64,000 nucleotides of DNA from Treponemataceae bacterium (GCA_963678065.2 CAXXVZ010000003.1:32001-96000); one strand, 5' to 3'. Shown: positions 34,925 through 54,935, counted from the stretch's first letter. Numbers and translations: made by a program. Notes: a model not told the origin generated them from the sequence alone.

Positions 34925-34945
34925 TATTATCGTAAAAATACGATA
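34925..34945 (+). promoter_or_regulatory. ArsR operator 2, an identical 21-bp copy
   Basis: TATTATCGTAAAAATACGATA, identical to 34457-34477 and abutting the permease SD. Confidence 0.7.
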
Positions 34946-34956
34946 AAGGAGTGAAT

Positions 34957-36057
34957 ATGTACGATTTTCTCGCTTTCGCCCTTCCCCTCATGGGGAAGAA
35001 TTTTCTCCACGTTCTTCCGCTCATTCTCGTCACCGTACCGCTGGCCCAGTGGCTCAAGCGATCGGGCCTTTCCTCTCGTTTCGTTCCGGCGCTGAGATCG
35101 AGGCCGATGATGGCGATTCTTCTCGCCACGATCGCGGGTGCATTTTCGCCGCTCTGTTCCTGCGGAGTCATCCCCGTCATCGCGGGCTTCCTCAGCGCGG
35201 GAATGCCTCTCGGACCGGTCATGGCCTTCTGGATAGCTTCTCCGTCCATGGACCCGGAAATATTCGTGCTTTCGGCCGGAGTTCTCGGCCTGCCCCTCGC
35301 CATCGGGCGCCTGGCCGCGACGACACTGCTGAGCCTCGCTGCGGGCTTTGGGGCGCATTATCTCGAAAAAAAAGGTATTTTCGGAGCGGAAGGCTTGCGG
35401 ATTCCCGGCGGAAACCGTGAAGTCGCGAACGCCGACTCAGGCGGGCTTAAAGTTGCCGGCAGCTGCTGTGCCGCCGCCGGGCCGACTCTGTCACCGCAAT
35501 CGCCGAGAGGAGCTCAGGCATTGAAGACCTGCTCCTGCTCCCTTCCGCAGACGCGCGACTGCAGTCCTGCAGATTCCGGAAACGGAAAGAGCATCCCTGC
35601 GGGCGAACCTGAAGGTGAAACGGGCTCGCGGTCCAGGCTCGTGGGGATCGCGGTCGATTCCCTGAAGGAACTTCCATCGCTGATGGCGATCATGCTCCTG
35701 GCTTTTTTCCTCGAGACGGTCATCGTCAAATTCCTTCCCGCCAACCTGGTCTCATCCGTCGCGGGATCGGAGTCGCGTCTGGGCGTCCTGTTCGCCGCAG
35801 CCATCGGCGTGCCTCTCTACGTGACCAACCTCGCCGCCCTCGGCATAGTCCGGGGACTCCTGGAGAGCGGGATGTCGGGCGGCGCAGCCCTTGCCTTCCT
35901 CGTCGGCGGCGCGGCGACGACGATCCCCGCGATGACCGCGGTGTGGGTCCTCGTCAAGCCGAGGATCTTTGTCTACTACGTCGCGACAATCTTCGCAGGA
36001 GCGCTCGTCGCGGGATACGGGTGGAACATTCTGGCCGCCGTGATCAACCTTCGATGA
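34957..36057 (+). CDS. ArsP/DUF318-family permease
   Basis: PLCSCGVIP, GMPLGPVMAFWIASP, GVPLY, GAALAFL; Cys-rich central insert. Confidence 0.85.
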   Translation: MYDFLAFALPLMGKNFLHVLPLILVTVPLAQWLKRSGLSSRFVPALRSRPMMAILLATIAGAFSPLCSCGVIPVIAGFLSAGMPLGPVMAFWIASPSMDPEIFVLSAGVLGLPLAIGRLAATTLLSLAAGFGAHYLEKKGIFGAEGLRIPGGNREVANADSGGLKVAGSCCAAAGPTLSPQSPRGAQALKTCSCSLPQTRDCSPADSGNGKSIPAGEPEGETGSRSRLVGIAVDSLKELPSLMAIMLLAFFLETVIVKFLPANLVSSVAGSESRLGVLFAAAIGVPLYVTNLAALGIVRGLLESGMSGGAALAFLVGGAATTIPAMTAVWVLVKPRIFVYYVATIFAGALVAGYGWNILAAVINLR

Positions 36058-36064
36058 TGATGCG
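36043..36064. repeat. Left 22-bp direct repeat (att-like)
   Basis: ATCAACCTTCGATGATGATGCG, identical to 54914-54935. Confidence 0.9.
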
Positions 36065-36074
36065 CGGCCTCGTC

Positions 36075-36389
36075 TCATCGTTGACCAGCCAGCGAGGTCT
36101 CGAGTCGGGCCAGCCGGTCCTCGAGCCTATCGAGCGCATCCGGCAGGGCTTTTTCGCTTTTGGCCCGGGAGCACAGGGCGGGATTGTTCACCCACCAGTC
36201 CATGCCCATTTCCTTGGCCTTATCCACCGAGCAGATAACCAGGCGAATCTGGATCGTCAGCAACTCGACATCGACAAGGTTGATCCTGATATCGCCTGCG
36301 ATGACGATGCCCTTGTCCAGAACCCGCTCGAGAAGGTCCGCCAGGTTCGTGCTTCCCACGGAATTCGTGACTCTGCGTGTTTCTGCCAT
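36075..36389 (-). CDS. gvpJ: Gas vesicle protein GvpJ (GvpA/J/M family)
   Basis: LADLLERVLDKGIVIAGDI...VELLTIQIRLVICSVDKAKEMGMDWW. Confidence 0.9.
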   Translation of the reverse strand: MAETRRVTNSVGSTNLADLLERVLDKGIVIAGDIRINLVDVELLTIQIRLVICSVDKAKEMGMDWWVNNPALCSRAKSEKALPDALDRLEDRLARLETSLAGQR

Positions 36390-36403
36390 TTTTCATCTCC
36401 CAT

Positions 36404-36781
36404 TTATAGAAGTTTTCCCAGAGGGCCCAAGTCCAGATTCAAATCTTCATCCTCGAGACCGAACTCGCCGGCGATCCTGGTGAGCACCTCGGATTGTTGC
36501 ATGAGGGTCAGTCCGAGTCGCTCGATCTCGGCATCCGTGAGATCGCCCCCGTCGATCCTCCGGAGCGCCTGTTTTTCCAGGAGTTCGTGGAGGAGCTTGA
36601 CCACTGTCAGGACCAGTTGAGCCAAGCCGTCCTTCTTTTTTTCATGATCCATATCCAGACGGCGGGGCGGCAACAGCGCGCTGCCTGCCGTCATTGTTTT
36701 GGCAAAGTCTCCTATAGCGGGAGAATCCACCATCGATTCGACTGCGGGATACGCTAAAGAATCATCGCTGATGTTCATCAT
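36404..36781 (-). CDS. gvpK: Gas vesicle protein GvpK
   Basis: LAQLVLTVVKLLHELLEKQALRR, EIERLGLTLM, LNLDLGPLGKLL. Confidence 0.92.
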   Translation of the reverse strand: MMNISDDSLAYPAVESMVDSPAIGDFAKTMTAGSALLPPRRLDMDHEKKKDGLAQLVLTVVKLLHELLEKQALRRIDGGDLTDAEIERLGLTLMQQSEVLTRIAGEFGLEDEDLNLDLGPLGKLL

Positions 36782-36969
36782 GTCTGGCTTTTTCCCTTCC
36801 TGGCTGTTTCCACGGAGGATACGATCACCTGCAAGCTCAGATAGATCAGATCGATATCGGCAACGGAAATTATTGCCTCACCGACAATTACAGCGCCTTT
36901 GTTGAGAATCCGGTCCAGGGCCTCGCAGAGGCTCACATGTTCTTTTTCAAGGGCGAAGTCATCGGGCAT
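36778..36969 (-). CDS. gvpS: Minor gas vesicle protein, GvpS-like (GvpA family)
   Basis: LCEALDRILNKGAVIVGEAIISVADIDLIYLSLQVIVSSVET. Confidence 0.8.
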   Translation of the reverse strand: MPDDFALEKEHVSLCEALDRILNKGAVIVGEAIISVADIDLIYLSLQVIVSSVETARKGKSQT

Positions 36970-37010
36970 GCTGCCCCCTCCGGCTGGAGTGCGTTCCACA
37001 ATTCATCATT

Positions 37011-38984
37011 CTATCCATGCCGGTAACCCTCCGTTCCCGCTATCCCGCCTGCGTTGCCGGTCATATACAGGAGTTGCCCGAGGGCCGTGAGCTCTGCTAT
37101 TCCCCGGGGGTCGCTTTGTCGGTACACGAGCGTCTGCGAAGTGCCGGGGAAGGCCGCCGCAAAGCGTTCTTTGACAAGCGACTCCCGGCGGAAAATGCAG
37201 GAGCACAGAGGATCGGCGCTCTCCGGCGTCGCCAGATTCAGGAACAGGCAGGAGACCGGAACAGCCAGACGCTTGCATGCGGCCAGCAGATCTTGCGTCT
37301 CCGCAAAGGACATCTCCGTGAGAATGCTGACGGCATACAGGGCCGCCTTGGAGGGGTCATGCAGCATCGCCCGGAGGCGTTTCAGATCTTTGGAAATTTG
37401 GACAAGGCGATTGGTTATTTTCGGCAGCCGGAAAATATCCCGATATTTCAGGAAGAGACCGAATACCACCTTCAGCCACTGCTCGATGATTTCGGGGAGT
37501 TCCAGGAGTCTTATCAGATGCCCTGTCGGCGCGGCATCCAGGACCAGCGCGTCGAAGCGGTCCTCGGCAAGGAAATCCATCACCGATGTCAGCGCCATGA
37601 GCTCGTCTATCCCTGGCGGGGATAGGTCCATGAGCCGCTCGATGACTTCCCGATCATATGTCATGTCGAGGTTAGGCATGATTTTGGTCAGAAACTGTTT
37701 TATTTCACGGCGGTACTGATTTTTCAGCGAGGCGAATTCCGCCCCGGCATCCACTTCCATGGCCCATAGTCCTGGCGTTACCGGCGTCGGTTCGGAGCCG
37801 ATGCTCATGTCGAGGCAATCTGACAGGGAATGTGCCGGATCGGCGGAAAAAAGGAGAATCTTTTTTCCGCCATATGCCTGTGTCAGGCGCAGGGCCGTGG
37901 CGCAGGCCAAGGTAGTCTTTCCGACCCCACCTTTTCCCGCGAAGACGAGCAGAGACGACTCAGGCGGTGGCAAGGCGATGGAGCCGGCTACCCGCGGCGG
38001 GATCGAGGGCAGGGATGGCTGGTCTTCCGAGGCGCGCGCAGATAGCGGATCGAGCCCCTTCCAGAAGGATAGAAGGCCTTCCAGCCCCTTGATTTCCTCC
38101 GGATACATAGGGATTCCCCAGAGGCCTACGCCGGAGAAGAGCTTCTCGCGGAAGAGACGGGAAAGTTCCACCATCTGCCGGGAGCGAATATCCCTGCACA
38201 GGGTACACTGACTTTCCGGATAAAGCCGGTTGACCACGATATCCGCGATCCTGATGCCAAGGTGTTTCAGTTCACGGATCAGATCCAGTGTCTCTTCCAC
38301 GCTCAAGGCCTCGGCCAGCATCACGGGAACGAAACGGCAGCGTTGAGGGTCCTTGAGCAGGCTCTGCATCTGTTTGGCGTCGGATGTAAGTCCGGCGATG
38401 AATCGATCGAGATCGTCCTCCTGATAAGAGCCATGGAACAGCCTCTTCATATAGCGGTACTTGGCCAGAAGAGTATCCAGCGCTTCCAGCCACTTTTCCA
38501 TCAGGTCAGGCATCTCCAGGAGCCGCAGAGTGTGGCCGGTCGGAGCCGTATCCACGATGATCTCGGCATAAGTCCCGGCCGCAACCCACCGACTGATTTC
38601 CAGAAAACTCATAATCTCATCCATGCCGGGAAGGGAGAGCTCCAGGAACCGGTTGATATCCTCTTCATCCAGGAACGTTCCCCGTGAGGCGATCTCCATG
38701 AGTCTCTGCCGGTTCTTTTCTTTGAAGGAGAGAAGGCAGGCTTGGGTATCCAATTCTTCAACTTTCAGATTTTTCGGCAGCTCGGCCCCGGCGAAACTGT
38801 CCTGGAGGGAATGTGCCGGATCGGTGGAAACGAGGAGAATGGAACGATCAGGATGCCGGGTGGCGATGTCCAAGGCCGTCGCCGCGGAGGCAGTAGTCTT
38901 GCCCACACCGCCCTTTCCGCTGAAGAGCACGAGTTGCCAGCGCTCCGCGGTCAGAAAGCCCGGGGCTTCCCGGTGGTTTTTCAT
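37011..38984 (-). CDS. Tandem two-domain ArsA/Get3-family ATPase
   Basis: Two GKGGVGKTT, two S(T/A)DPAHSL, DTAPTGH and DAAPTGH, PG(M/I)DE. Confidence 0.9.
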   Translation of the reverse strand: MKNHREAPGFLTAERWQLVLFSGKGGVGKTTASAATALDIATRHPDRSILLVSTDPAHSLQDSFAGAELPKNLKVEELDTQACLLSFKEKNRQRLMEIASRGTFLDEEDINRFLELSLPGMDEIMSFLEISRWVAAGTYAEIIVDTAPTGHTLRLLEMPDLMEKWLEALDTLLAKYRYMKRLFHGSYQEDDLDRFIAGLTSDAKQMQSLLKDPQRCRFVPVMLAEALSVEETLDLIRELKHLGIRIADIVVNRLYPESQCTLCRDIRSRQMVELSRLFREKLFSGVGLWGIPMYPEEIKGLEGLLSFWKGLDPLSARASEDQPSLPSIPPRVAGSIALPPPESSLLVFAGKGGVGKTTLACATALRLTQAYGGKKILLFSADPAHSLSDCLDMSIGSEPTPVTPGLWAMEVDAGAEFASLKNQYRREIKQFLTKIMPNLDMTYDREVIERLMDLSPPGIDELMALTSVMDFLAEDRFDALVLDAAPTGHLIRLLELPEIIEQWLKVVFGLFLKYRDIFRLPKITNRLVQISKDLKRLRAMLHDPSKAALYAVSILTEMSFAETQDLLAACKRLAVPVSCLFLNLATPESADPLCSCIFRRESLVKERFAAAFPGTSQTLVYRQSDPRGIAELTALGQLLYMTGNAGGIAGTEGYRHG

Positions 38985-39061
38985 GACTCTGCCCGTCCTT
39001 TGGTAGTTCTTTCGCCGCACACTCAGCCGCTCGGATTGCGGGCCTTTCTCAAGCCCCTCTC

Positions 39062-39310
39062 CTATTCTTCCTCCCCATCGGCGGACTCTCCCTTCAGGGC
39101 ATCGAGGCGGTCGAGAAGCACCTTTTCCGCCGCGTCGAATTCCGCTTCCGTCATCTGTCCCGTCTCCAGCATCATGTAGAGTTCGCCGAGCTTGGCCGTG
39201 ATGGCCTCCGGTTCGGCCTCCAAGTCCTTCTCCACGGCATTGTCGATCTCGCGAAAGATCCACATGAGGCTTCGGAAGGGAAACAGGAGGAGATCATCGA
39301 CTAGGAGCAT
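39062..39310 (-). CDS. gvpG: Gas vesicle protein GvpG
   Basis: DDLLLFPF..L.WIF, LETGQMTEAEFDAAEKVLLDRL. Confidence 0.88.
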   Translation of the reverse strand: MLLVDDLLLFPFRSLMWIFREIDNAVEKDLEAEPEAITAKLGELYMMLETGQMTEAEFDAAEKVLLDRLDALKGESADGEEE

Positions 39311-39361
39311 CTGTCCACCGCCTATTTCGCCACGATCATTCGCGATCCGTCCCTGGATGTT

Positions 39362-40120
39362 TCAGAGAGCCAGTTCGACATCCACGAAGTTGTGCGGAGC
39401 CCAAGGACCATTGAAATCGAACGTGAAATTGTTGTCGAACTCCTGCGCCGCTGAGCATATGGCGGTTTCGAAATTTTTCTCGATGTTCTGTCGGGACACG
39501 AGACAGGCGAGGTTCATGACCTCTTTTTCGCCGTGGGGGGGGATTCTCTTGATTTCTGCGCAGCAGGACTTCAGGCTCGTCTCCACTTTTTCCGTATGTT
39601 CCTCGCGGTCTTCCTTGAGAAGCCGATCGAAGAGTCTCCCTACCTCGATCTTGTCTTCCTGGGTAGGAGCATGGCGACCGCCAAAGAGCTGATCGCGCGC
39701 CGCCCGCAGTTCGGCGTGGGTGTTGACGAAATACTCGAAGATATTGGGGACATCCCACGCGACCCGTACCCCCATCTCTGCCTTGCCATGAACTCGCTGA
39801 ATCTGTTTGGTAAAGGATTTCCGGTTGAGGGACAGAATCCGCCGGATTTCCTTGTCGCTCTCGGCGATCACGCCAAAACTGATGGGCAAGGGGGAATCCT
39901 CCACCATGAGGCGCTTGAGGACGGTTTGATGAGCGGCGATATGGCGGCGCTCCGGGCGGATCTTCCCGTTGCTGAAATCGCTGACCACAGCGGCGACGTG
40001 GTCGTCCGGGATGAGATAAACCCGCGCCCCATCGATGCCGATCTCGCCGTATTCGCGATTCTCTCTCGCCGGAATGACCGCGTAAAGATACTTTCCCGTT
40101 TGTGTTGTCGTGCTGGCCAT
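39362..40120 (-). CDS. gvpF: Gas vesicle protein GvpF/GvpL family (GvpF1-like)
   Basis: YLYAVI, AHQTVL, LPISFG, GPWAPHNFV. Confidence 0.9.
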   Translation of the reverse strand: MASTTTQTGKYLYAVIPARENREYGEIGIDGARVYLIPDDHVAAVVSDFSNGKIRPERRHIAAHQTVLKRLMVEDSPLPISFGVIAESDKEIRRILSLNRKSFTKQIQRVHGKAEMGVRVAWDVPNIFEYFVNTHAELRAARDQLFGGRHAPTQEDKIEVGRLFDRLLKEDREEHTEKVETSLKSCCAEIKRIPPHGEKEVMNLACLVSRQNIEKNFETAICSAAQEFDNNFTFDFNGPWAPHNFVDVELAL

Positions 40121-40140
40121 ATCGCGTTCTCCCTGATGTC

Positions 40141-40338
40141 TCATGCCACGGGCTTGTTCTTCCCGCCAGTGACGGAACGGCTTTTCCGTTCCGTGAGCTT
40201 CGCTGACTTGACGCGTCCCTCACTCAGCTTGACCTCCACAGTGGCGTTGCAGGCGTAGCACTTGATTTCGCCTTCGTAATCGCTGTAGGACTCATCGAGG
40301 TCGATGTTGTGACCGCAGGATAAACAGTTGATTTTCAT
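40141..40338 (-). CDS. Small zinc-ribbon protein (65 aa)
   Basis: CLSC...CYAC pairs; ATG overlaps the upstream stop. Confidence 0.7.
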   Translation of the reverse strand: MKINCLSCGHNIDLDESYSDYEGEIKCYACNATVEVKLSEGRVKSAKLTERKSRSVTGGKNKPVA

Positions 40339-40562
40339 ATGTACTTCTCTTCCCTTACGAGATTGCTCCACGCCTGATGTTCCGCCCACAGTCGGACGAG
40401 CCAGTCCAGACGGAGCCGTCGGTTGACCAAGTCCACGTACGCCTGGTTGACGCGCCGCGCCTCTCTACGGCCCGCGAAAAAACCCGTGTGGGTTCTCAAG
40501 GCCATGTGGCCCTTCCTGTGACGATTCGTGGGAATGTGATGTGAATCGTAGATTGTCAGCAT
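40335..40562 (-). CDS. Hypothetical protein (75 aa) in the gvp operon
   Basis: SD GGGGAGG; fills the gap exactly; its stop overlaps the next ATG. Confidence 0.55.
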   Translation of the reverse strand: MLTIYDSHHIPTNRHRKGHMALRTHTGFFAGRREARRVNQAYVDLVNRRLRLDWLVRLWAEHQAWSNLVREEKYI

Positions 40563-40576
40563 CAGGGCCTCCCCTA

Positions 40577-40900
40577 TCAGTACCTGATTTTGAACGGTCC
40601 GGTACTCGCGCGCGGCGCTCCCGTCGGCCCGATCGACTTTCGCCTGCATGGCGGCGAGGCGCCGTGCGGCTCCAGAGATTGGAGGGTCTGCGCTTTTTCC
40701 GCCTCGATCTCCTGGAAGCGCTGATCGATAATCCGCAACCTCTCCAAGGCGGTTGTCTTTTCCTTGTTCCGGCGATACTTTTCCATCTCGAGAATGCTGA
40801 GCTTCATATAGGCCTTGTACGGTGTGGCAAAATCATCCACCCGTCCCGACAAAGTCTTGATGTTCTGCAGACCCCTCACGACCTTTTTCGTCGCCGGCAT
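40577..40900 (-). CDS. GvpV-like coiled-coil protein
   Basis: AYMKLSILEMEKYRR...RFQEIE; directly after gvpN; SD AAGGAGG. Confidence 0.65.
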   Translation of the reverse strand: MPATKKVVRGLQNIKTLSGRVDDFATPYKAYMKLSILEMEKYRRNKEKTTALERLRIIDQRFQEIEAEKAQTLQSLEPHGASPPCRRKSIGPTGAPRASTGPFKIRY

Positions 40901-41888
40901 TTCGTACCTCCTTGTGTTTGGCTGGTTTCATCGGCCCACAGACTTTGCGGATCACCTCTTCCACCTTTTCCAATATGATCGGCTGTCCGTCATGAGTGAC
41001 CTTCGCGGTATCGGCGGCGAGAACATCGCGGCAAACTAACTGGAAGAACTCGTCATCCGAGCGGGCGCGGTGATTCTGGGAAGAAAGGATCCGGCCGATG
41101 GCGATGCCTGCCCGGATGGTCGGACGATGGTTGTTCACCCCGAAGGTCCGCAACTCCCGCACCATGTCCACGATCCGCTCGGCGTCCTCCCGGGGCAGAC
41201 CGGATTTTTTCTTGACGATGAGGACTTCAGTTTCCCGGTCGTAATGTTCCAGATGAATGGTGATCAGGCGGTCCATCAGCGCGTCCTGGGTTTTGTGGAC
41301 CCCGGCGTATTCTTCGGGATTGGAGGTGAAAATGGCGCGGAATTTGGGGTGCACGGACAGGTATCCCTCGCCGGACTCGCGGAGTTTCGGCAAGTTCAGG
41401 ATTCCCTCGGAAAGCACACTCAACAAGGCGTTGTTCGCCTCCGGCCGTGAACGGTTGAATTCGTCGTAAATCAATGTATCCCCGTTCCGACAAGCGGTGG
41501 TGAGTCGGTCGTCCACCCAGAAGTTCCGCGTCTCCTCCTCTGTCTTCAGAACGGAGTGAATGAAGTTATCGACCAGTTTGGACTTTCGGTAGCCGCCATC
41601 CCGGCCCACGAGATCCGAGCTACCGAATTCATCATCTCCGTGAACCAGGATGACCGGGCGCCCCAGTTTCGACGCTACATGAAAGGCAAGAGTGGTCTTT
41701 CCCGTTCCTGCCACGCCTGAAAAATGGACTGGGTAACCGGCAATCAAGTAGGCCAAGGCCCGCTGCGTGACCTGCTCGACATAGGGAGACGAGATGAAAC
41801 TGTCGCTGGCCTCGGGTTGGACACCGTCATCTCCGACAGGCACATGAACCGTCGGCAGGGCAAACGCTTCCGCGGCATTTTGACTCAT
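40833..41888 (-). CDS. gvpN: Gas vesicle AAA+ ATPase GvpN
   Basis: GYPVHFSGVAGTGKTTLA, VDNFIHSV, YDEFNRSRPEANN, NPEEYAGVHKTQDALMDR. Confidence 0.95.
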   Translation of the reverse strand: MSQNAAEAFALPTVHVPVGDDGVQPEASDSFISSPYVEQVTQRALAYLIAGYPVHFSGVAGTGKTTLAFHVASKLGRPVILVHGDDEFGSSDLVGRDGGYRKSKLVDNFIHSVLKTEEETRNFWVDDRLTTACRNGDTLIYDEFNRSRPEANNALLSVLSEGILNLPKLRESGEGYLSVHPKFRAIFTSNPEEYAGVHKTQDALMDRLITIHLEHYDRETEVLIVKKKSGLPREDAERIVDMVRELRTFGVNNHRPTIRAGIAIGRILSSQNHRARSDDEFFQLVCRDVLAADTAKVTHDGQPIILEKVEEVIRKVCGPMKPAKHKEVRNAGDEKGREGSAEHQDFVGTGG

Positions 41889-41913
41889 GGTCGACTCCTT
41901 CCTCTCGGTGAGT

Positions 41914-42270
41914 TCATCCAGCAGTGACACATCCGCGTCCCCGGCATCTCAGGCAGGCCATGGCCGGAGCAGAGGAATCATCGCCCGAACCGCGGCACAC
42001 AGGGCATGGGACAGTCGGCGACGCGGGCCGGAAAACAGCGCCTTTCCCTCCGCACGCTGTGCAGGTAAGGGTCTTGATGGCCCCTGTTCCCCCGCAGTGC
42101 GCGCAGGTGATGGCGGGGGAGAGTATCCGGACTTTGCCGCTGCCTCCACAGACACAGCACGTTGACAGCTCGGACATGATGCCGAATGGATCTATGCCCT
42201 TGCCGTGACAAAAAGCGCATTTTTTTTCCTCGAAAACCACCCTGTCCTTCGTTGACCTGCGCGGCATCAT
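41914..42270 (-). CDS. Stand-alone DnaJ-type zinc-finger protein
   Basis: Six CxxCxGxG repeats and no J domain. Confidence 0.8.
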   Translation of the reverse strand: MMPRRSTKDRVVFEEKKCAFCHGKGIDPFGIMSELSTCCVCGGSGKVRILSPAITCAHCGGTGAIKTLTCTACGGKGAVFRPASPTVPCPVCRGSGDDSSAPAMACLRCRGRGCVTAG

Positions 42271-42279
42271 GGAAGCACC

Positions 42280-42774
42280 CTACTTCTTTTTCGTCCGCTT
42301 CGGTCTGGCTGCCGATTTGCCCGGCTTCGCGCGAACAGGAGGCTCGCTCAGCCCGTCATTCTCTTCTTCCCCACAAGGTTTCATGGCTGAGTCGGAAGGT
42401 TCAGCCGCCACGACGGAGGAGTCGGTCGCGATGACCGTGGGCTCTGTCGCCATGACCTCGGCTTCGGCCGCGATGACGGTAGGTTCGGCCTCCATGGCGA
42501 TAGGTTCAGCCGATATAACCGAAGGCTCCGCCGTCATGACTGCAGGCTCCGCCGCTATCACGGTGGGTTCAGCCACCGTGACCAGGGGCACCAGTTCTTT
42601 CTCTTCTTCTTTGTCCTGGGGCGCCACCTTGCGCAAGCCCGCCACCTGGTTCCTGATCTCGAGAAGAAAGGCCCTGCGCTCATTCCGCGCCCTCTCGGCC
42701 TGCCTCTTCTGCACGCTGGAAAAATCTGCCAGCATGGACCTCACGTCATTGGCCAGGTTGGTTTTGTAGGACAT
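42280..42774 (-). CDS. Repeat protein in the GvpC position (GvpC-like)
   Basis: Follows gvpA; helical N-terminus, heptad repeats, basic tail. Confidence 0.6.
   Translation of the reverse strand: MSYKTNLANDVRSMLADFSSVQKRQAERARNERRAFLLEIRNQVAGLRKVAPQDKEEEKELVPLVTVAEPTVIAAEPAVMTAEPSVISAEPIAMEAEPTVIAAEAEVMATEPTVIATDSSVVAAEPSDSAMKPCGEEENDGLSEPPVRAKPGKSAARPKRTKKK
42385..42573 (-). repeat. Nine degenerate 21-bp (7-aa) tandem repeats, consensus AEPTVIA
   Basis: AEPTVIA AEPAVMT AEPSVIS AEPIAME AEPTVIA AEAEVMA TEPTVIA TDSSVVA AEPSDSA. Confidence 0.85.
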
Positions 42775-42868
42775 CCTTTCCTCGCAGCCGTTTTTCCCCA
42801 TATCAGCCAGCTTACTCACGAGAATCTCCTTTGCGTGTCCTGTTTCCGTACCGTCCGTCTTCTGGGAG

Positions 42869-42894
42869 GCGGGGAGGGCGTCAGGCCTCCCCGC
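42869..42894 (-). terminator. GC-rich stem-loop just downstream of gvpA
   Basis: GCGGGGAGG-N8-CCTCCCCGC, perfect 9-bp stem with no U tract. Confidence 0.6.
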
Positions 42895-42910
42895 GGGGAA
42901 TTTGTCCGGC

Positions 42911-43129
42911 CTAGGCGGGCATGGCGGCGTTGGCCGTCAAACCGATCGCCTCGGCATACTTGAGATAGGTCTCGACCGACGCGACCACGACGCGCGCTTC
43001 GACCGAGAGCAGTTCGATGCCGACCAGCGACACCTTCACCCAGGCGTCGATCACGATACCCTTGTCCAGGATCCGGTCGACGACTTCGGCCAAACTCGAT
43101 GAATCGGTTGATTTCTGAATCTTTGCCAT
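42911..43129 (-). CDS. gvpA: Major gas vesicle shell protein GvpA (72 aa)
   Basis: [63 protein letters not shown]. Confidence 0.97.
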
Positions 43130-43197
43130 TGTGCATCTCCTTTCGTCTGTTCTGTTTCCTTCTACGTACTGGCCCGCATGCATGCCACCAAATGTGC

Positions 43198-43213
43198 TGC
43201 AGGATTCGTGCCA
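43198..43213 (-). promoter_or_regulatory. Sigma54 (-24/-12) promoter of gvpA
   Basis: TGGCAC-GAATC-CTGCA versus consensus TGGCAC-N5-TTGCW, about 70 bp upstream of gvpA. Confidence 0.8.
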
Positions 43214-43305
43214 TGTATCTCCAGCCGCTCTACTCGATGCGAAAACGCCTGATTTCAGGCACATTGTCTTCAAAAAAACGCGATCTCGGCATTTCCGGGA
43301 AGCTG

Positions 43306-43746
43306 CTATGGCGCCGGAGCTATGGAAGCATTTCCATACATCACGGGCGACTGATTCGTGTTCCCGACCACGGAATGCGGAGAGCCGATGGTGCGCAGAA
43401 TTTCATCATGAGCGAAAGGTTTGGCGACAAAGGCCGAGATCAATCCCGACTGAATAGCCCCTGTGATGGCGGGGTCATCCTGGTAGAAGTAACCGGACAC
43501 GATGACTATGCGGATGCCGGGGATGGATTCCATGAGGCGACGGGCCAGATCGAGCCCATCGTGGTCCGGCAGCTTGGCATCCAGGAAGGCCATGCGGAAG
43601 GATTGGCTTTCCGCCAGGGACAAGGCTTCCTTGGCGTCAAAGGCCGTGCTGCAGATGCCTCCGGTCCCTTTCAGAATCCGCTCGAGAACCCAGCACATCT
43701 CCGGTTCGTCGTCGACGATGAGAAATGGCCCGCTGTCGTTGGTCAT
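43306..43746 (-). CDS. Single-domain response regulator (GvrC-like)
   Basis: [23 protein letters not shown]; no output domain. Confidence 0.85.
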
Positions 43747-45254: not shown

Positions 45255-45266
45255 CGACGTCTCCTT

Positions 45267-45995: not shown

Positions 45996-46001
45996 AGGCC
46001 A

Positions 46002-46802
46002 TTATCCCTGCATGTCCAAGACAGGCGTGAAATGGTAGGGAGGCAAGGGGCCGGAGGACTCGAAATGAAGCCCCATGGATTCGTGGCTCGCGTTCCATTC
46101 AGTCGTCATGCGTAGCAGCTGCTCTGCACAATGGTCCGGAACGAGAAGAGCGGCGTGGAAGAACATCTCGTCGCCTCTCCCTGTCAGTTCCGGCGACAGA
46201 AGGCGACGATCGCTGAACGCCGAGGATAGCTCACTGACGGACGTCATTATGTCGTCCGCCAGCCCCTTGAGCCAGGATGTCACCTCACGATCCACCGCCC
46301 CCCGGATTTTCTGTTCCTGAAAGTAGCGAATGCCCGGGGAAAGCTTGGCGAGTTGCTCTTTCCCGGCCGCCAGGCGCGTTTCCAGGATCTGCGATCGGGC
46401 CTGTGGCATGTCCACATATGCCTTGAGGGTCCATTCCTTCTGGCCGGCTGTGCCGAGGAAGAATTTCGACAGGGCGTCCCGATGCCGCTCCAGCGCCGCC
46501 GCCAGCACATCCACGGAAGAAAAAACGCTTCCGAACCGAACGGGCAAGACGGGAGCCTGGCGCATGATCGTCATGATGACCTCTTCATGGCGCAGTGCCC
46601 GGGGCGCCACCCACGCCAGGTCCGCCAGCCTCTCGCGGGCCTCCTGCCCGCAGAATTCCTCCAGGGAAACCGCGGAGAGAACGGCGTTGACATCGGCGAT
46701 GGCCTCGATACAGAGGGGATGCGATTCGTCTATCCCCATTCCCTCGATTTTCAGAAGTGGATTTTTCGGTGTCAGGCAGAACAGGTATATCCCTTGGCTC
46801 AT
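46002..46802 (-). CDS. gvpL: GvpF/GvpL family protein (GvpF2-like)
   Basis: YLFC, WVAPRALRHEEVI, VLPVRFG, SGPLPPYHF. Confidence 0.87.
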   Translation of the reverse strand: MSQGIYLFCLTPKNPLLKIEGMGIDESHPLCIEAIADVNAVLSAVSLEEFCGQEARERLADLAWVAPRALRHEEVIMTIMRQAPVLPVRFGSVFSSVDVLAAALERHRDALSKFFLGTAGQKEWTLKAYVDMPQARSQILETRLAAGKEQLAKLSPGIRYFQEQKIRGAVDREVTSWLKGLADDIMTSVSELSSAFSDRRLLSPELTGRGDEMFFHAALLVPDHCAEQLLRMTTEWNASHESMGLHFESSGPLPPYHFTPVLDMQG

Positions 46803-48937
46803 CCTTGCTCCCCCAGCACGTCGGCTATGGCGTCGTCAATATCCTGACGTTGGATCAGGATTTCCGGTTCTTCCCCTTCGCCCTTCTCCAAGGTTTTCAC
46901 GGCGCGGCGGACTGCCGACATCGCCGCTTTTCGCGCGATAGCGGCGATGTCGGCCCCGCTGAAACCTTCCGTTACCGCGGCGAGTTCCGCGCAGCTGATA
47001 TCTTCCGACAGGGGTTTCTTCCTGAGATGGACGGAGAAGATTTCCTCTCGCTCCTTTTCCTCCGGCATGGTCATCTCGATGATCTCGTCGAAGCGGCCCG
47101 GCCTGAGCACCGCGGCATCCAGCATGTCCCTGCGGTTGGTCGCTCCCAGGACAAGTACACCCCGGAGCTCGTCGATCCCGTCGAACTCCGCCAGAAACTG
47201 ACTCAGGATCCGTTCGGAGACATGAGAGTCCGCGGTTCCGGCGCTCCTCGTCGCCACCAGGGCATCGATTTCGTCGAAGAAGATGATGCACGGCGCCGCC
47301 TGTCGCGCCTTGTGAAAGATTTCCCTGATTCCCTTTTCCGATTCTCCGACCCATTTCGACATCAGGGCGGGCCCTTTGACGGAGATGAAGTTTGTCTGGC
47401 TCTCCGTGGCGATCGCCTTGGCCATCAGGGTCTTGCCGCATCCGGGGGGGCCCACCAAGAGAATTCCCTTGGGCGGGGTCACTCCTCCCTTTTCGAAAAG
47501 TTCGGGGTATTTGAGGGGCCATTCCACGGCCTCGACGAGTCGCTTTTTCAGGCTGTCGAGCCCTCCCACGTTTTCCCAGCGAACATTGGGGGATTCCACG
47601 AAGACTTCCCTGATGGCGGAGGGTTCTATTTCCCGCAGGGCGGCAAGGAAGTCCTCCATCCGCACCTCGAGTTTCGAGAATGTTTCGTAAGGGATAGCCG
47701 CCTGACTGAAATCTATCTCCCCCATGATCTGCCTCAGGCAGATCATGGCGGCCTCCCGGCAGAGAGCCTCGAGATCCGCGCCGACAAAACCGTGGGTGAT
47801 CTCCGACAGATGCTCCATCCGGACATCCCCGGCCAAGGGCATCCCCCGGCTATGGATTTCCAGAATTTCCAGGCGGCCGACCCGGTCCGGGATCGGGATG
47901 ACGATCTCCCGATCAAACCGTCCCGGACGTCGCAGAGCCGGATCAAGGGAATTGGGAATGTTGGTGGCGGCGATGACGATGACATTCTGCCTCTTGTTGA
48001 GGCCGTCCATGAGGGCGAGGAGTTGGGCGACGATCCGCTTTTCCACTTCCCCGACAACATTTTCCCGCGAAGGAGCTATGGCGTCGATTTCGTCGATGAA
48101 CAGGATGCTGGGTTGATTGCTGGTCGCCTCCTCGAAAATCTTCCGCAGGTGGGCCTCGCTTTCGCCGTAAAATTTGTGGACGATTTCCGGTCCGCTGATG
48201 GAAAAGAAGCTGGCCTCCGTTTCGTGGGCTATCGCGCGGGCGATGAGGGTCTTCCCGCAACCCGGCGGGCCGTAAAGAAGCACCCCCCGCGGCGCGTCGA
48301 TCCCGAGGCGCAAGAAGAGCTCAGGATAGCGGAGGGGTAGCTCGATCATCTCGCGGATGCGCTGGAGCTGGGATTTCAACCCGCCGATATCTTCGTAGGA
48401 AAGGGTCTTTCCCCTATCCTCCTCCTGGCTCTTGCCGATCACGAGTACTGTGCCCGGGTGGATGAGGGCCGGACCCTTGGGCGTCACGGATTCGACTTTG
48501 AAATAGGCAGAGCGGCTGCCAAACAGGGCGGCCTGGATTTTTGCGCCCTCCATGACCGGCAGGCCGTCCAGGAGGCTTCCGATGTATTTGAGATCCCGCT
48601 CCGCCGGCACGACGTTGGTCGGCGCCAGGGCGACACGCTCCGCCGGGCGGCAATGGATCTTGCGGATTCTCACGGGTTCATCGAGACCGACGCCCGCGTT
48701 TTCGCGGGTCGAGCCGTCGAGCTGGACCCGCGACTGTCCGCGGAACTCCGCGTAGGCAGGCATGGCCTTGCAGACCGCTTTCCTCTTCCCCTCGACCTCC
48801 ACGATATCGCCGACCGTGATCTGAAGCCTTTCCAGGTCCTCGGGGCCCATGCGGGCGAAAGCCCTTCCGACGTCTTTGGTCAAGGCTTCCGTCACCCGTA
48901 GCTTGACGACAGGCGCCTCATCGTCCTTTGTGGCCAT
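46799..48937 (-). CDS. CDC48/VCP-family double-ring AAA ATPase (GvpZ-like)
   Basis: N-domain plus two [35 protein letters not shown]. Confidence 0.93.
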
Positions 48938-48941
48938 ATTT

Positions 48942-49634
48942 TTACCCCGCTTTCCCGCAGCGAATCGTCACGATGCCATTGTTGCAGGTCACCTTGATAC
49001 GCTCCTCCGAGAGAACATGGCGCAGAAGCATCTCCTTCCGGTACTTCTTCTCGCCCCTTTGGGCAAAGATCGTCAGCACGTCATCCCGGACCTCGAGGTG
49101 AATGTCCTCCGGCCCCACGCCCGGCATTTCGGCGACAAGGGTAGTGGCGTCTTCGTCCTCGAAGACGTCGACCAAGGGTTCGTTGATCTCCTGAACCACC
49201 GCCTCGCCGGTTTTTTTGTCCTTCCGGATGTTGCCGAAGGGTTCGACCTTGATATGGTCGCCCTTTTCTCCCAAGCCGGTTTTTACGGTGAATCCGTATA
49301 CCCCTTTGATCCCTCTCTCTTTTGACGAAAAATTGAGCTCCCCCTCTTTCGAGAAGGTTTCGCCCTTTTCCGAAAGCTCGCTGAGCCGTTCGGCGAGGTC
49401 GGCCAGGCCATTCAATATCCCCCCGGCATTGTTCTCGCCTGCCGACTCTTCCTTCGCGGCGCCCGAGCTTTTCGCTTCGCCATCGGGAGTCTCCGCTTTG
49501 CGCTTCGCCAGCCGTTCGGCCGTCCCCGCCAGCTTCTCCACCGAGCCCAGAAGACCTGTCAGTCCGCCGAAGATGCCGCCGAGTTCCACCCTCACTTCAT
49601 CTTTTTTGTCGGATTCGGGTTTCTTTTTACTCAT
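48942..49634 (-). CDS. Hsp20/alpha-crystallin family protein (GvpH-like)
   Basis: GVYGFTV, EPFGN, EPLVDVFE, VAEMPGV, NNGIV. Confidence 0.85.
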   Translation of the reverse strand: MSKKKPESDKKDEVRVELGGIFGGLTGLLGSVEKLAGTAERLAKRKAETPDGEAKSSGAAKEESAGENNAGGILNGLADLAERLSELSEKGETFSKEGELNFSSKERGIKGVYGFTVKTGLGEKGDHIKVEPFGNIRKDKKTGEAVVQEINEPLVDVFEDEDATTLVAEMPGVGPEDIHLEVRDDVLTIFAQRGEKKYRKEMLLRHVLSEERIKVTCNNGIVTIRCGKAG

Positions 49635-51054
49635 CGTCGCCTCCTTGAGTCTGGATACCGAACTTTTTTACCTTCGTGTGCATGGTCTTGTAGTCGATTT
49701 GCAGCAATCGTGCCGCCTTGGCTTTGTTCCCGCCGGTGTATTGCAGAACTCCGACAAGGACTCTCCTTTCCACCTCGACGACGCTCCGACGCACAATGTC
49801 CCGGAGAGACGCGCTCTTCCAGGGCGAGCCGTCCGTCTCCGGCACAAAAGCCGACACCACCATCGCCGCACGCTCAATGCCAAGATCCTGTTCGGTGATG
49901 GCCCCCTTGGACACCAGCGCGGCCCGCCGGATCACTGACTTGAGTTCGCGGACATTCCCCGGCCAGTTGTACGAGATCAGCGCCTCGATCGCCGAATCCG
50001 AAAGTCCCAGGGTCTTCCTGCCCAGTTCGGATTCGGTCATGTCCAGAAACCGTTTCGACAGATAGAGTATGTCCTCCTTTCTCTCCCGGAGAGACGGGAT
50101 ATCGATGGTGAAGTCGCACAGGCGATAATAGAGGTCCTCCCGGAAAGCGCCGGATATAACCATTTCCCGGAGACTCTGGTTGGTGGCGGCGATCAGGCGG
50201 AAATCCACCTCGATGGGTTTGGTTCCGCCTACTCGATTGAGCACCCTGCTCTGGATGGCCCGAAGCAGCTTCGCCTGGGAGCTGAGGGGCAGATTGGCGA
50301 CTTCATCCAGGAATAGTGTGCCACCATTGGCCAGCTCGAACTTGCCCGGTTTCTGTCGGTCCGCGCCGGTAAATGAGCCCTTTTCGTGCCCGAACAATTC
50401 GCTTTCCAGCAGCGCCTCGGGTATGGCCCCGCAATCCACCGTGATGAAGGGAGCCTGGCTCCTGGCGCTGCTCCGGTGGATGGCCGTCGCCACAAGCTCC
50501 TTGCCCGCGCCAGTTTCGCCGATGAGAAGGACGGAAAAGTTCGATTTCGCGACTCGATGGATGTCCGCCGCGATTCTCGCGATCGAGTCCGACGGTCCCA
50601 TGCTCTCGAAAATGGACATGTACTCTAGCGGTTCTCCGGCTGCGGCCTTGTGTTTTCTCAGTTGCCCTTCCGACAAGGCACGCAGGGTGATCCTGGCGAC
50701 TTCGTTGTTGTCGAAGGGTTTGGCTATATAGTCGTAGGCCCCGTCTTTCATCGCCTCGACGGCCTGACAGACGTTCGCGTGTCCCGTTATGAGGACGACG
50801 GGCAGATCATCGTCCAGTTCCCTGATTTTGCCGAGGACCTCCAGTCCATTGAGTCCCGGCATGCTCACATCGAGAAGAACGACCTTGGGCACCGAAGTGG
50901 GAGACTGGATCTTCTGCATCGCCTGATACCCGTCGGCGGCGGTGATGACCTTTATCCCTTCCCTCTCCAGAATATGAGTCAAATTCGTCCTCGCGTCCTC
51001 TTCGTCATCGACGACCAGCGCGTACAGGACGCTATTATCGTCAATATTTCTCAT
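49627..51054 (-). CDS. Sigma54-dependent NtrC-family response regulator (GvrA-like)
   Basis: Receiver domain; GETGAGKE, ELFGHEKGSFTGA, FREDLYYRL, WPGNVREL; Fis HTH GNKAKAARLL. Confidence 0.93.
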   Translation of the reverse strand: MRNIDDNSVLYALVVDDEEDARTNLTHILEREGIKVITAADGYQAMQKIQSPTSVPKVVLLDVSMPGLNGLEVLGKIRELDDDLPVVLITGHANVCQAVEAMKDGAYDYIAKPFDNNEVARITLRALSEGQLRKHKAAAGEPLEYMSIFESMGPSDSIARIAADIHRVAKSNFSVLLIGETGAGKELVATAIHRSSARSQAPFITVDCGAIPEALLESELFGHEKGSFTGADRQKPGKFELANGGTLFLDEVANLPLSSQAKLLRAIQSRVLNRVGGTKPIEVDFRLIAATNQSLREMVISGAFREDLYYRLCDFTIDIPSLRERKEDILYLSKRFLDMTESELGRKTLGLSDSAIEALISYNWPGNVRELKSVIRRAALVSKGAITEQDLGIERAAMVVSAFVPETDGSPWKSASLRDIVRRSVVEVERRVLVGVLQYTGGNKAKAARLLQIDYKTMHTKVKKFGIQTQGGDDE

Positions 51055-51683
51055 TGTCTGCCCGACCCGCTTGTCCGGGACCCGTCAGGACTCCCGAGGG
51101 GATAGAGCACGCGGATATCCGCCGGCAAATGCGCGATCGGGTTGTGCAGCATACCCAGGAAGAGGATGCCTGTTTCTCCCGCCTGTAGAGTCTGGTCGAT
51201 CCTCGCCGCGATGAAGGTATCCCGCTTCTCCAGGAGCTGATCGCTCGTCGCTTTCTGTTTGACATCGATTTTTATGGTCTCCCTGGCATTCCTCGCTTCG
51301 AGGATTTTTTTGGCGAGGCGATATTCCTCGATCAGCAGCTCTGCGGATTCCGTGCCCATGATCGTCGCCCCTTTTTCTTTGAGCCGGATGAGAAGCAGGT
51401 GATTCTGGCTGCCCATTTTCGCGATGTCCGCGACAATATCCGCCTCCTTGTCGCATATCGGCAGACCATCCTGATAAACACGTGTCCGCGCATACGGCAG
51501 CGAAAGGTCGTTGAAGACGATATCCTCGATGCTCGACCAGAACCGCCCGACCAGATCGACCTTCTGCCGCCACACGCGTTGGCCGAGTTTGCGCTGAGTG
51601 ACCTCCATGATGGACTGCCCGAGTGCGCCCATCTCCGATTGACTGTGTATGATGGGAAAGTAGTAAAGCGTTCGCGATGTCAT
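51051..51683 (-). CDS. Hypothetical protein, first gene of the gvr operon
   Basis: 210-aa ORF whose stop overlaps the activator ATG; motifs PIIH, VYQDGLP, GTES, RD.FIA, GMLH. Confidence 0.75.
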   Translation of the reverse strand: MTSRTLYYFPIIHSQSEMGALGQSIMEVTQRKLGQRVWRQKVDLVGRFWSSIEDIVFNDLSLPYARTRVYQDGLPICDKEADIVADIAKMGSQNHLLLIRLKEKGATIMGTESAELLIEEYRLAKKILEARNARETIKIDVKQKATSDQLLEKRDTFIAARIDQTLQAGETGILFLGMLHNPIAHLPADIRVLYPLGSPDGSRTSGSGRQ

Positions 51684-51843
51684 GGTTTTTCCGGTTTGAG
51701 TGCTTGTGCCATGTGTATAAATTTTCTATATCGCGACCCGGACCGCAATCACCGAATTCGGGGATACGTGGCTTGGGAAACCTGGATTCTGACTTTTCCC
51801 GGCACCGTTTCGCTGTGACGAGTCGGTGAGTCAGGCTTTCGCT

Positions 51844-52488
51844 CTATTCCGGCGACGTCATCCCTTCCCTGATGGCGTACTTGGTGAGTTCGGCGATGCT
51901 GTGCAGACCGAGCTTGTCCATGATGTGCTTGCGGTGCGAGTCGATCGTGGTCACGCTGACACCGAGCTTCGCCGCGACGTCCTTGTTGCTTTGCCCCTCG
52001 GCGAGCAGTTGCAGCACCTCGCGTTCCCGGTCGGACAGGGGCGAATCCATAGGCACCAGCATATCGGCCAGCTGGCTGATGTAGTCGGTGAGCAGCATGT
52101 CGGCGATCTTCGGATTGGTGTAGATGTGGCCGGACGCCACAGCCCGGATCGCGGCGGCCAACTCCTCGAAAGCAGAACCCTTCAGTACGTATCCCATCGC
52201 GCCCGCCCCGAACATCTGTCGCACGAAGCGTCGGTCCGCATGCATGGATAGAGCGATAACCTTGACTTCCGGCGTTTCCTTCCGGATCTGCCGCGTGGCC
52301 TCGATCCCGTTCAGGTCCGGCATCCCGATGTCCATCAGCACCACATCCGGCCGCAGGTCGCGCGCCATGCGTATGGCCGCGATTCCGTTTTCAGCCTCCC
52401 CGACCACGCTCATCCCGCTCTGCCCCTTAATCAACTCCTGCAGGCCCTCTCGCATCAGTGTGTGGTCATCGGCGATCAGTATTCTCAT
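51844..52488 (-). CDS. NarL/LuxR-family response regulator
   Basis: ILIADDH, LMDIGMP, LSDREREVLQLLAEG, HRKHIMDKL. Confidence 0.93.
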   Translation of the reverse strand: MRILIADDHTLMREGLQELIKGQSGMSVVGEAENGIAAIRMARDLRPDVVLMDIGMPDLNGIEATRQIRKETPEVKVIALSMHADRRFVRQMFGAGAMGYVLKGSAFEELAAAIRAVASGHIYTNPKIADMLLTDYISQLADMLVPMDSPLSDREREVLQLLAEGQSNKDVAAKLGVSVTTIDSHRKHIMDKLGLHSIAELTKYAIREGMTSPE

Positions 52489-52535
52489 GATCCTGCTCCC
52501 TGCCTGATTTCGATGTCCGCAATGCGGCGGCTTTA

Positions 52536-54674
52536 TCAGAGCGGCCGCATTGTGGGAACCGTCAACGACACCCGCGTCCCGCAGCCCGGTCCCGACTCGA
52601 TCGTACACTGCCCGCCTATCGCGGCCAGATACTCCCGTACGCTGTACAGCCCAAAACCGACTTCGTGATTCCGCCAGTCCAGGAGCGACAGGTCGAAGCC
52701 GCGCCCATCATCCTCGACGGTCACGCGGACCAGCTCCCCCACCCGCTCCATCGCCGCGCTCAGCCTTGTCGCCTTCGCGTGTTTGACGGTGTTCATCATC
52801 AGCTCGCGGACGCAGCGGAACAGCAGTACTTTCCGTTCATCGTCCAAGGATTTCGGCTCGCCGTCATCGCGATAGACGAAGGCCAATCCGTAATCCCGGC
52901 AGATTTTTTCGCCTGCCCACTCCACCGCTGCCGTCAAATCCAGCTGATGAAGGACCGGGGGACTCAGGTTGAACACCAGCGAGTGCATCCGGTCAATGGT
53001 CGTTTCCAGTATGTCACGAATCTGTGCGATGCTCGCTTGGGCAGGGCGTGAGTCGAGTGTCGTCGCCAGGATGCCGAGCTTTATCCGGAGCAATGCCAAG
53101 GCCTGCGCGATCTCATCGTGCAAGCTTGCGGCCAGTCGACGCCGCTCTCGCTCCTCGACCCGCGACAGTTCCATGGCCAATTGACGCAGCCGGGCCTCTG
53201 AAGCGCGCAGCGCCAGCTCCACCTGTTTGCGCTCGCCGATGTCGCGGCATATGCTCATCATCGCCGGTCGGCCATCCCAGGTGATCCGCCGCGCATTCAC
53301 GTCAGTCGGGATGAGAGAGCCGTCCCTGCGCCGATGTGCGGTTTCATACGAGAGATGCCCGCGCTCCATCAGCAAGGCTATCCGGTCCGGCGCGCGCGGA
53401 GCTTCCTCTTCCGAGTTCACCTGGTCGATTGTCATGGACAGCAACTCGGCATGAGTGTATCCAAGCCGCTCACAGGCCCTCGGATTGGCCGCCAGTATCC
53501 GCGCGCCTTCGTCGCAGATGAAGATCGCGTCGCCGGCATTGTCAAACAGAGTCATATATTTTTCTTCGCTCTCCTGCAACATCATCTCGATCCGGCGTTG
53601 CGACAGAGCTATCGCCATGTTGTCGGCGATCCTTTCGAAATGGGCGATCAGTTCGGGGCTGAATCGATTCTTCTGGTGGTCATTGAATTGCAGCAAACCG
53701 AAGATCCCGCGCGCCGCGCGCATAGGAATCAGCGCCAGTGATTCGTATCCCTCTTCAGCGCACCGAATGCGCGCGCTTGTCAGGCGGTCGACTTCGCCGA
53801 TACTGGCAAACAGGGAGCGGGCGCTGTTGGACCAGAAGCTCCCGTGGGCGGTGAAGAAGGGTTTTGTGGGATCGAAGCGGCCGGAAAGAACATTTCCGCA
53901 CATACACACGAGCACAGGGGTGTTTGCGCCATCGCGCAGGGTTCTGCCGTATCGGTCGTACGCAGAGAGGCGGTTCTCTGCGCGGACAAACGCGGGCGAA
54001 AAGCCTCGGCTCCAGTAATATGGATAATCATCCCCGGCGCTCAGGCGAATGCCGATGGCATCGCATCCCGCCCACTCTTGCAGGGAGGCGGCCAAGGTCG
54101 ATATATGCTCACGAATATCGCCCGGCGTGTTTACAATCGCGGTAAGACATGCCATCAACTCGCGCTCGCGCTCCTGGATCTTGCGCTCGGTGATATCGCT
54201 CATCACGACGTGGCACAGGGGAGTGCCATCGGCGTCCCGCGCATCGACGATCTCCATCCGTACCCAGAATGGAGCGGCGTCTGTTCGCAGCATCCGCAAT
54301 TCGCAGGTCCGCGATGTGCCGGCCTGCCCCGATCCTGCCAGCTCAGGGCCTGTCCGTATCGAATCTGTCGAATGGGTTTCATGAGGCTGTTCGCGGTGCA
54401 GGCTGTAGATGTTCCGGTCGTCAGGGAGAATGAACGTGGTGATCGGCTGCCTGACCAATGCGCTCCTGGCCAGACCCAAGAGGGCGGCGGCGGCGGGGTT
54501 GGCCTCCATGATCAGCCCCTCATCAGAGATGGTGCAGTAGCCCACCGGGACCAAGTCGTAGAAAGCGAGGTATCGCGCCCGCGCGGCCTCCGGTTCCGCC
54601 CGCACTTCGCGCGAATCCTGCCCTGAATCTGCCGAAAGAACGACGCCACCGGAGCGGGTATCCTTGTTGTTCAT
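52536..54674 (-). CDS. Soluble PAS-GAF-PAS histidine kinase (HisKA_3 type)
   Basis: EERERRRLAASLHDEIAQ, ELMMNTVKHA, DDGRGF, GFGL. Confidence 0.9.
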   Translation of the reverse strand: MNNKDTRSGGVVLSADSGQDSREVRAEPEAARARYLAFYDLVPVGYCTISDEGLIMEANPAAAALLGLARSALVRQPITTFILPDDRNIYSLHREQPHETHSTDSIRTGPELAGSGQAGTSRTCELRMLRTDAAPFWVRMEIVDARDADGTPLCHVVMSDITERKIQERERELMACLTAIVNTPGDIREHISTLAASLQEWAGCDAIGIRLSAGDDYPYYWSRGFSPAFVRAENRLSAYDRYGRTLRDGANTPVLVCMCGNVLSGRFDPTKPFFTAHGSFWSNSARSLFASIGEVDRLTSARIRCAEEGYESLALIPMRAARGIFGLLQFNDHQKNRFSPELIAHFERIADNMAIALSQRRIEMMLQESEEKYMTLFDNAGDAIFICDEGARILAANPRACERLGYTHAELLSMTIDQVNSEEEAPRAPDRIALLMERGHLSYETAHRRRDGSLIPTDVNARRITWDGRPAMMSICRDIGERKQVELALRASEARLRQLAMELSRVEERERRRLAASLHDEIAQALALLRIKLGILATTLDSRPAQASIAQIRDILETTIDRMHSLVFNLSPPVLHQLDLTAAVEWAGEKICRDYGLAFVYRDDGEPKSLDDERKVLLFRCVRELMMNTVKHAKATRLSAAMERVGELVRVTVEDDGRGFDLSLLDWRNHEVGFGLYSVREYLAAIGGQCTIESGPGCGTRVSLTVPTMRPL

Positions 54675-54913
54675 GTGGGCCTTCATCGTTTTCCGCGGCG
54701 AGAGCGGCTACGTTGATGGATTTGGCCGTCGCATGCCACGGTCCGTACAAATAAGATAACATGCGTGCGTGATGTTGAACAGAGAGGAATCGAGTACCCG
54801 GCGATCGGTGTATCCGGTCCCCATAGTCGGGAGCATGAAAAAGGTCGATTATGGAAAAGGGCCGACGTGGACATGATCCTCGCCGGCCTCCTTTTCGTTG
54901 TGCCAGAGTCCCT

Positions 54914-54935
54914 ATCAACCTTCGATGATGATGCG
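54914..54935. repeat. Right 22-bp direct repeat (att-like), comprising the asd 3' end
   Basis: ATCAACCTTCGATGATGATGCG; the minus strand encodes RIIIEG-stop. Confidence 0.9.

Follow-up and report, generated by a model that had tools for sequence, protein, structure and literature searches.

A gas vesicle gene cluster between two copies of a 22-bp asd-end repeat in a spirochaete chromosome

A block of gas vesicle structural (gvp) and regulatory (gvr) genes lies between the permease gene arsP and asd in a 64,000-nucleotide stretch of DNA catalogued as Treponemataceae bacterium (GCA_963678065.2, CAXXVZ010000003.1:32001-96000; hereafter the window, with positions counted from its first letter), where it is bounded by two copies of a perfect 22-bp direct repeat. 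The host is a free-living spirochaete of the family Rectinemataceae (Spirochaetota). The block looks like the scar of a real insertion that has since settled and is fixed in the species, and its general kind is known. Its best explanation, to which we assign a probability of roughly 0.45, is that host recombination inserted the gvp/gvr DNA once at the asd end and duplicated the target in doing so. More unusual than the type of scar is that a spirochaete has a gvp cluster at all; one literature search at listing level, of incomplete coverage, found no paper on gas vesicles in spirochaetes. The scar would date and delimit the event by which a spirochaete gained a complete module for building an organelle, and it offers a clean junction that can be tested by polymerase chain reaction.

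The repeat and the edges of the block

The repeat, ATCAACCTTCGATGATGATGCG, occurs on the plus strand at 36043-36064 and 54914-54935, with starts 18,871 bp apart. The left copy contains the last four codons (INLR) and the stop of arsP and, when its minus strand is read, gives an orphan tail of asd; the right copy contains the last six codons and the stop of asd, a minus-strand gene, plus one base. The left copy lies 10 bp past the end of gvpJ, whose stop is at 36075. An earlier note, made from the sequence alone, had described this repeat, and its coordinates, spacing and placement at the arsP and asd stops are all confirmed. The C-terminus of asd aligns residue by residue with the asd of a family relative (G006), and the repeat is therefore native to asd, with the left copy as the orphan. 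Extension to a degenerate repeat of 36 bp was rejected as not significant. An imperfect direct repeat just inside the two edges of the block (p ~0.006, post hoc) was set aside because its left half is conserved gvpJ coding sequence.

This pair is the sole exact 22-mer repeat of the window, and a search of the whole genome (5.27 Mb, both strands, up to 4 mismatches) recovered the same two copies and no third, which excludes the dispersed genomic repeat that the earlier note had allowed for. From the length spectrum of 14-18-bp repeats, extrapolated with a clustered regularly interspaced short palindromic repeat (CRISPR) array and two integron regions excluded, the number of isolated repeats expected by chance genome-wide, at ≥22 bp and with 3-60 kb between copies, is 0.51, corresponding to 1.7e-12 per position pair. 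The chance of a repeat at both cluster edges is ~2e-7 (the per-pair rate multiplied by 200 x 600 positions). Since gvpJ is the terminal gene in 8/8 other clusters examined (the cluster of one family relative, G010, is rearranged there), the left repeat marks an independently defined cluster edge.

No recombinase was detected within these edges, in agreement with the earlier note. A six-frame search of the genome gave 16 tyrosine recombinase matches, of which 0 are in the block, and the corresponding search for serine recombinases found none. Pfam scanning of 85 of the 114 open reading frames (ORFs) of ≥60 aa that start within 35943-54765 identified neither recombinases nor transposases, the latter without a six-frame hidden Markov model search. 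Comparison of 13 host integrase ORFs with the block gave no match better than E 0.21. An integrase 10.6 kb to the right was considered as the mover and rejected, as it heads a low guanine-plus-cytosine (GC) cassette region and has no tie to the 22-mer.

Contigs from 4 of 22 listed sequencing runs, representing four studies and chosen with possible source runs left out, were compared with 35490-55489. The block is in place in 4/4 of these independent runs. In one of them the full 20 kb is covered by a single contig that differs at 488 positions (2.4% diverged), the left junction is bridged in 4/4 runs, and the right junction is bridged by listed contigs in 2/4; misassembly, a concern of the earlier note, is thereby refuted. 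Because the block is in place in strains 2.4% apart, the insertion predates those strains. The proposal that the insertion was recent is thus unsupported, and the composition of the block, given below, is ordinary in both GC and tetranucleotides. Nor do the data support a mobile unit: the block is fixed in place 4/4, and no joint that skips the block or closes a circle occurs among 15 of 45 joints from the 4 runs, in contigs that drop rare forms. The repeat that is still perfect argues against great age, suggesting fewer than ~0.17 substitutions per site over ~18 free sites. In run X1, 24 differences were found round the left junction, with 0 in the repeat among 22 listed. The same run carries a 10-base insertion at 54913, directly outside the right repeat copy. 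Run X7 (share near 0.27) was considered as a flank-only strain and rejected, as it carries the block.

Gene content and origin of the cluster

All genes between the repeats are on the minus strand, and the reading frames of the block genes are open. The first segment (36075-36999) comprises gvpJ (36075-36389), gvpK (36404-36781) and a gvpS/A2-like gene (36778-36999), and is followed at 37011-40144 by a double-domain ArsA/GET3 ATPase gene, gvpG (39062-39310) and gvpF1 (39362-40144). A Zn-ribbon ORF, a 104-aa ORF, gvpN (40833-41930), an ORF with a DnaJ central domain, a 179-aa ORF and gvpA (42911-43129) occupy 40141-43129; the 179-aa ORF stands at the GvpC position and has no Pfam match. Genes for a gvrC-like regulator, a gvrB-like PAS kinase, two GvpF/L proteins, a CDC48 protein (at the gvpZ position), an Hsp20 protein (at the gvpH position) and an NtrC-type gvrA, together with a conserved 210-aa ORF, extend over 43306-51683. 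The block ends at 51844-54686 with a NarL-type regulator and a PAS histidine kinase, a close pair common only to the family relative G010. Restriction-modification (R-M) families are absent among the Pfam-scanned ORFs of the block. A weak candidate for a sigma-54 element lies on the minus strand at 43199-43213, 70 bp upstream of the gvpA ATG; it resembles the -24/-12 consensus, with 0 matches to a strict pattern and 0.33 expected by chance under the relaxed pattern used. The host encodes RpoN.

The 11 genes that are essential in the Serratia 39006-type cluster (three of the gvpA family, three gvpF, gvpG, gvpK, gvrA, gvrB and gvrC) are all present, as assigned by Pfam/NCBIfam family and position and not by direct alignment to the Serratia proteins. 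By these assignments the block is a Serratia-39006-type gvp/gvr cluster and is predicted to be a complete gas-vesicle (buoyancy) module. With the cluster of Serratia sp. ATCC 39006 (PMC4982088, PMC5601083) it shares the gvrA-gvpH-gvpZ-two gvpF-gvrB-gvrC operon as well as three GvpA-family genes, three GvpF, gvpG, gvpK and gvpN. It differs in that the regulatory operon is upstream of the structural one, as in Psychromonas and Desulfomonile (PMC4982088), in the extra ArsA, DnaJ-like and two-component genes, in that GvpC and GvpV were not identified, and in its spirochaete host. Cryptic gvp clusters occur elsewhere (PMC4982088).

The family comparison set consisted of 68 other Rectinemataceae genomes, none of the host's genus, and GvpN was found in 1 of these 68, namely G010. 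The G010 cluster has 76-79% DNA identity to the block. Its neighbours are other genes, no repeat bounds it, and it is on a different contig from the arsRP genes of that genome. In trees of CDC48 and NtrC, the two spirochaete clusters are sisters and are nested among clusters from Lentisphaerota, unclassified organisms and deltaproteobacteria; these trees cover 18/22 loci, with 4 partial loci left out. The donor is left unnamed, because the trees are midpoint-rooted and carry no one-clade test. Patchy distribution and tree placement together show that the gvp/gvr cluster is foreign and was gained by lateral transfer. Identity to G010 at fourfold-degenerate sites is 0.54-0.66 for 10 block genes vs 0.45 for prfC and 0.40-0.49 for arsP/arsR, which further bears out the lateral arrival supposed in the earlier note and provides modest evidence that the block may have come to be shared between the host and G010 later than the split of the two hosts.

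The composition of the block is unremarkable for this genome. Its GC content is 58.7% vs 62.7% in the flanks (32nd percentile for the genome), its tetranucleotide distance is at the 45th percentile, and the GC steps at its edges are small (0.596/0.575 left, 0.604/0.644 right). Neither asd nor arsP was found beside homologous clusters (0/9 in the retrieved DNA). Among plasmids, 36 records have partial gvp matches, and none covers 80%. In G010 the gvpS-K-J end is replaced by a distant gvpF/J/K set (24-54% identity; G010:C35:115600-121200, L053), making that cluster a mosaic.

Insertion mechanism and rival explanations

Under the preferred explanation, lateral gvp/gvr DNA would have inserted once at the end of asd, at a site where arsP and asd presumably stood tail to tail with a 14-bp overlap. 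The insertion would have duplicated 22 bases holding both stop codons, so that arsP and asd would both have stayed intact. The joining would have been carried out by host recombination and repair, whether homology-assisted or illegitimate (for homology-assisted illegitimate recombination, see PMC2884548), with no integrase encoded by the element, and the block would later have become fixed in the chromosome of the species. Today, the repeat would permit only rare deletion through short homology and no programmed mobility.

Repeats elsewhere in the genome bear on this explanation. The genome has 20 isolated repeats that are at least 22 bp long with copies 3-60 kb apart. Sorted by eye, they comprise 5 tRNA attachment-site (att) pairs, 6 repeats of a dispersed family, 4 repeats in rRNA, coding or insertion sequence (IS) regions, and 5 unique non-tRNA pairs. 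One of these last five is the gvp pair, and two others bound self-contained sugar-use operons and their regulators with no recombinase match; these repeats sit at unrelated non-tRNA sites and have lengths of 52 bp and 28-35 bp. The former pair, perfect 52-bp repeats of a promoter region, encloses an 8.5-kb AraC two-component and sugar-transport block with a GC content of 49% (G000:C3:1923349-1931861, L187), for which an empty site was not found, no family genome having both flanks together. The latter encloses a 13-kb sugar-catabolism operon with a GntR regulator (G000:C5:1030292-1043408, L186) between 28-bp repeats (35 bp with one mismatch), and two different genes end ~17 bp from the two repeat copies. 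The fifth unique pair is a 24-bp repeat in a malT-like paralogue array, and a 25-bp repeat was rejected as a unique pair on account of a third copy. The 16 IS copies inspected by eye, IS1634-like ones among them, have only short flanking duplications, with no sign of long target duplications made by IS elements. The competence gene ComEC is present in the host, and Ku was not found in its genome. At the gvp block itself, gvpJ and the repeat are only 10 bp apart, so that integrase arm sites would have no non-coding DNA to occupy on the left. Host-mediated insertion is favoured because the repeats vary in length and sit at unrelated sites, att arms would not fit, the IS duplications are short and a competence gene is present.

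Recombinase-free inserts between duplicated gene ends have already been described, and the gvp block adds one example. Like the long-target-duplication inserts of Furuta et al. (PMC2853133), it is below 20 kb (here 18.87 kb), contains no other mobile genes, has a unique direct repeat that overlaps a gene 3' end, and resides in a host with a competence gene. The cargo is R-M in those inserts and gvp/gvr here, the repeat here is shorter at 22 bp, and an insert-free strain was not found here. Furuta et al. use a length of >30 bp to separate target duplication from site-specific recombination; the block therefore works like their class without being a member of it, given its 22-bp repeat and its non-R-M cargo.

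Several results count against a one-off insertion at asd. The 22-bp repeat is shorter than >30 bp and falls within the 8-60-bp range of integrase cores. Microhomology past the repeat is not significant (1163/3000 random segments score equally well), and arsP adjoins asd in 0 of the 68 family genomes, a set without same-genus members in which only 4 carry this asd type. The exact 22-mer has 0 matches in metagenome contigs and 0 in viral contigs, and a comparable edge repeat was found in 0/7 homologous clusters with both flanks. A 43-bp repeat near modAB, taken as a further case of the same kind, was dropped as a shard of a decayed duplication.

A possible but rather unlikely origin is a decayed site-specific element, resembling a cis-mobilizable element (CIME), in which a tyrosine-integrase island entered at the asd 3' end and later lost its integrase and transfer genes by deletion. 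Tyrosine-integrase cores measure 8-60 bp and protein-coding gene 3' ends are established targets (PMC5704250), such that the length of the repeat and its position at a gene 3' end, 1 base past the stop, fit an integrase core equally well; part of attP could be contained in the 227 bp that separate the repeat from the start of the kinase gene, and the host carries integrase islands at tRNAs. CIMEs and decayed tyrosine-integrase islands at 3' ends of housekeeping genes (PMC5704250) share with the block an 8-60-bp repeat with a housekeeping gene end and the absence of integration and transfer genes. They differ in that here no cognate integrase-bearing relative was found in a sparse sample, there is no tandem accretion, and almost no room remains for a left att arm, just 10 bp separating gvpJ from the left core. 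The failed search for an integrase remnant and the lack of the exact 22-mer in viral and metagenome contigs also speak against such an element, and none with an integrase was seen near the 4 asd genes of the family, three of them viewed in loci of 12-16 kb and the fourth in 4 kb. Unlikelier still is a relic of duplication and deletion, in which gvp already stood beside asd and, through local duplication and later deletion or through templated insertion where a deletion was joined, a 22-bp shard of asd remained at the arsP end; arsP and asd would then never have been adjacent. That no relative has the two genes adjoining agrees with this, as does the accessory status of both arsRP and this asd type in the family, and the same process is evident near modAB, where shards of one segment, 257, 43, 35 and 16 bp long, are repeated 2-3.5 kb away (G000:C3:1590282-1594100, L188) and are a decayed local duplication. 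Against it, no further shard of either side was found, the left copy falls exactly at the conserved cluster end, and ArsP ends at a normal length, which is not required of a random shard.

A live island that lacks an integrase and excises and integrates through a host recombinase in trans is very improbable. Its precedent is the E. coli H47 island (PMC3191183), which is likewise small, without recombination genes and between direct repeats, and the perfect repeat and the 16 tyrosine-recombinase matches of the genome would suit it. H47 has been shown to excise and has long, imperfect repeats, whereas the repeat here is 22 bp and perfect, with no excision seen in contigs. The block stands in place in all four studies, the joints examined neither skip it nor close a circle (contigs hide rare forms), and the homologous G010 cluster is at another site without such a repeat. 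A chance match or misassembly is hardly credible: about 0.5 such repeats are expected per genome and the assembly has a contamination figure of 6.7%, but the probability for both cluster edges is ~2e-7, an independent contig spans the 20 kb, and others bridge the junctions.

A broader extension of the preferred insertion, which we regard as doubtful, is that this spirochaete routinely captures recombinase-free operons through repair that duplicates 20-50 target bases (gvp and at least two sugar-use operons), and that intact gvp modules pass by the same route from phylum to phylum in anoxic waters, one such transfer having made this spirochaete buoyant. If several operons did arrive in this way, island finders centred on integrases would miss a main route of gene gain.

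The earlier note had called a protein-coding asd target unusual compared with tRNA targets. Protein-coding 3' ends are established targets (PMC5704250), though a literature search of incomplete coverage gave no paper in which asd serves as one.

Flanking genes and minor features

Outside the block on the right, asd (54915-56063, minus strand) is of the gamma type (TIGR01745 asd_gamma), and no second asd was found in the genome. At E 1e-60, this type occurs in 4/68 family genomes, each with different neighbours; in one of these genomes a distant arsR-like gene lies 3.4 kb away. Given its rarity in the family, asd may itself be a lateral gain. On the left, an arsR-family regulator gene (34536-34838, plus strand; frame open, start codon not fixed) and the arsP permease gene (34951-36057, plus strand; Pfam ArsP_1) lie outside the block, and arsRP, like this asd type, is accessory in the family. 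The ArsP tail is normal, with 12 aa past the last motif vs 11-12 in 4 family homologues. The closest ArsP has 54% identity and comes from G010, a genome in which the search for this type of asd found none. Metagenome contigs contain at least 74 ArsP loci, none exceeding 56% identity among the matches listed and none that could inform on the empty site.

Immediately beyond the right end of the window, a tyrosine recombinase gene is followed over ~25 kb by IS copies and genes of low GC content, 30-45% (G000:C3:96956-125000), in what looks like a chromosomal integron array, and a larger cassette-like repeat region is located at C5:750-935 kb. A CRISPR-like array with a ~32-bp repeat is present at G000:C3:1139000-1151000. 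Finally, arsR and arsP are each preceded by a copy of a near-perfect 24-bp repeat (34457-34480 and 34925-34948) that contains a palindrome, overlaps promoter-like sites, and is probably the ArsR operator.

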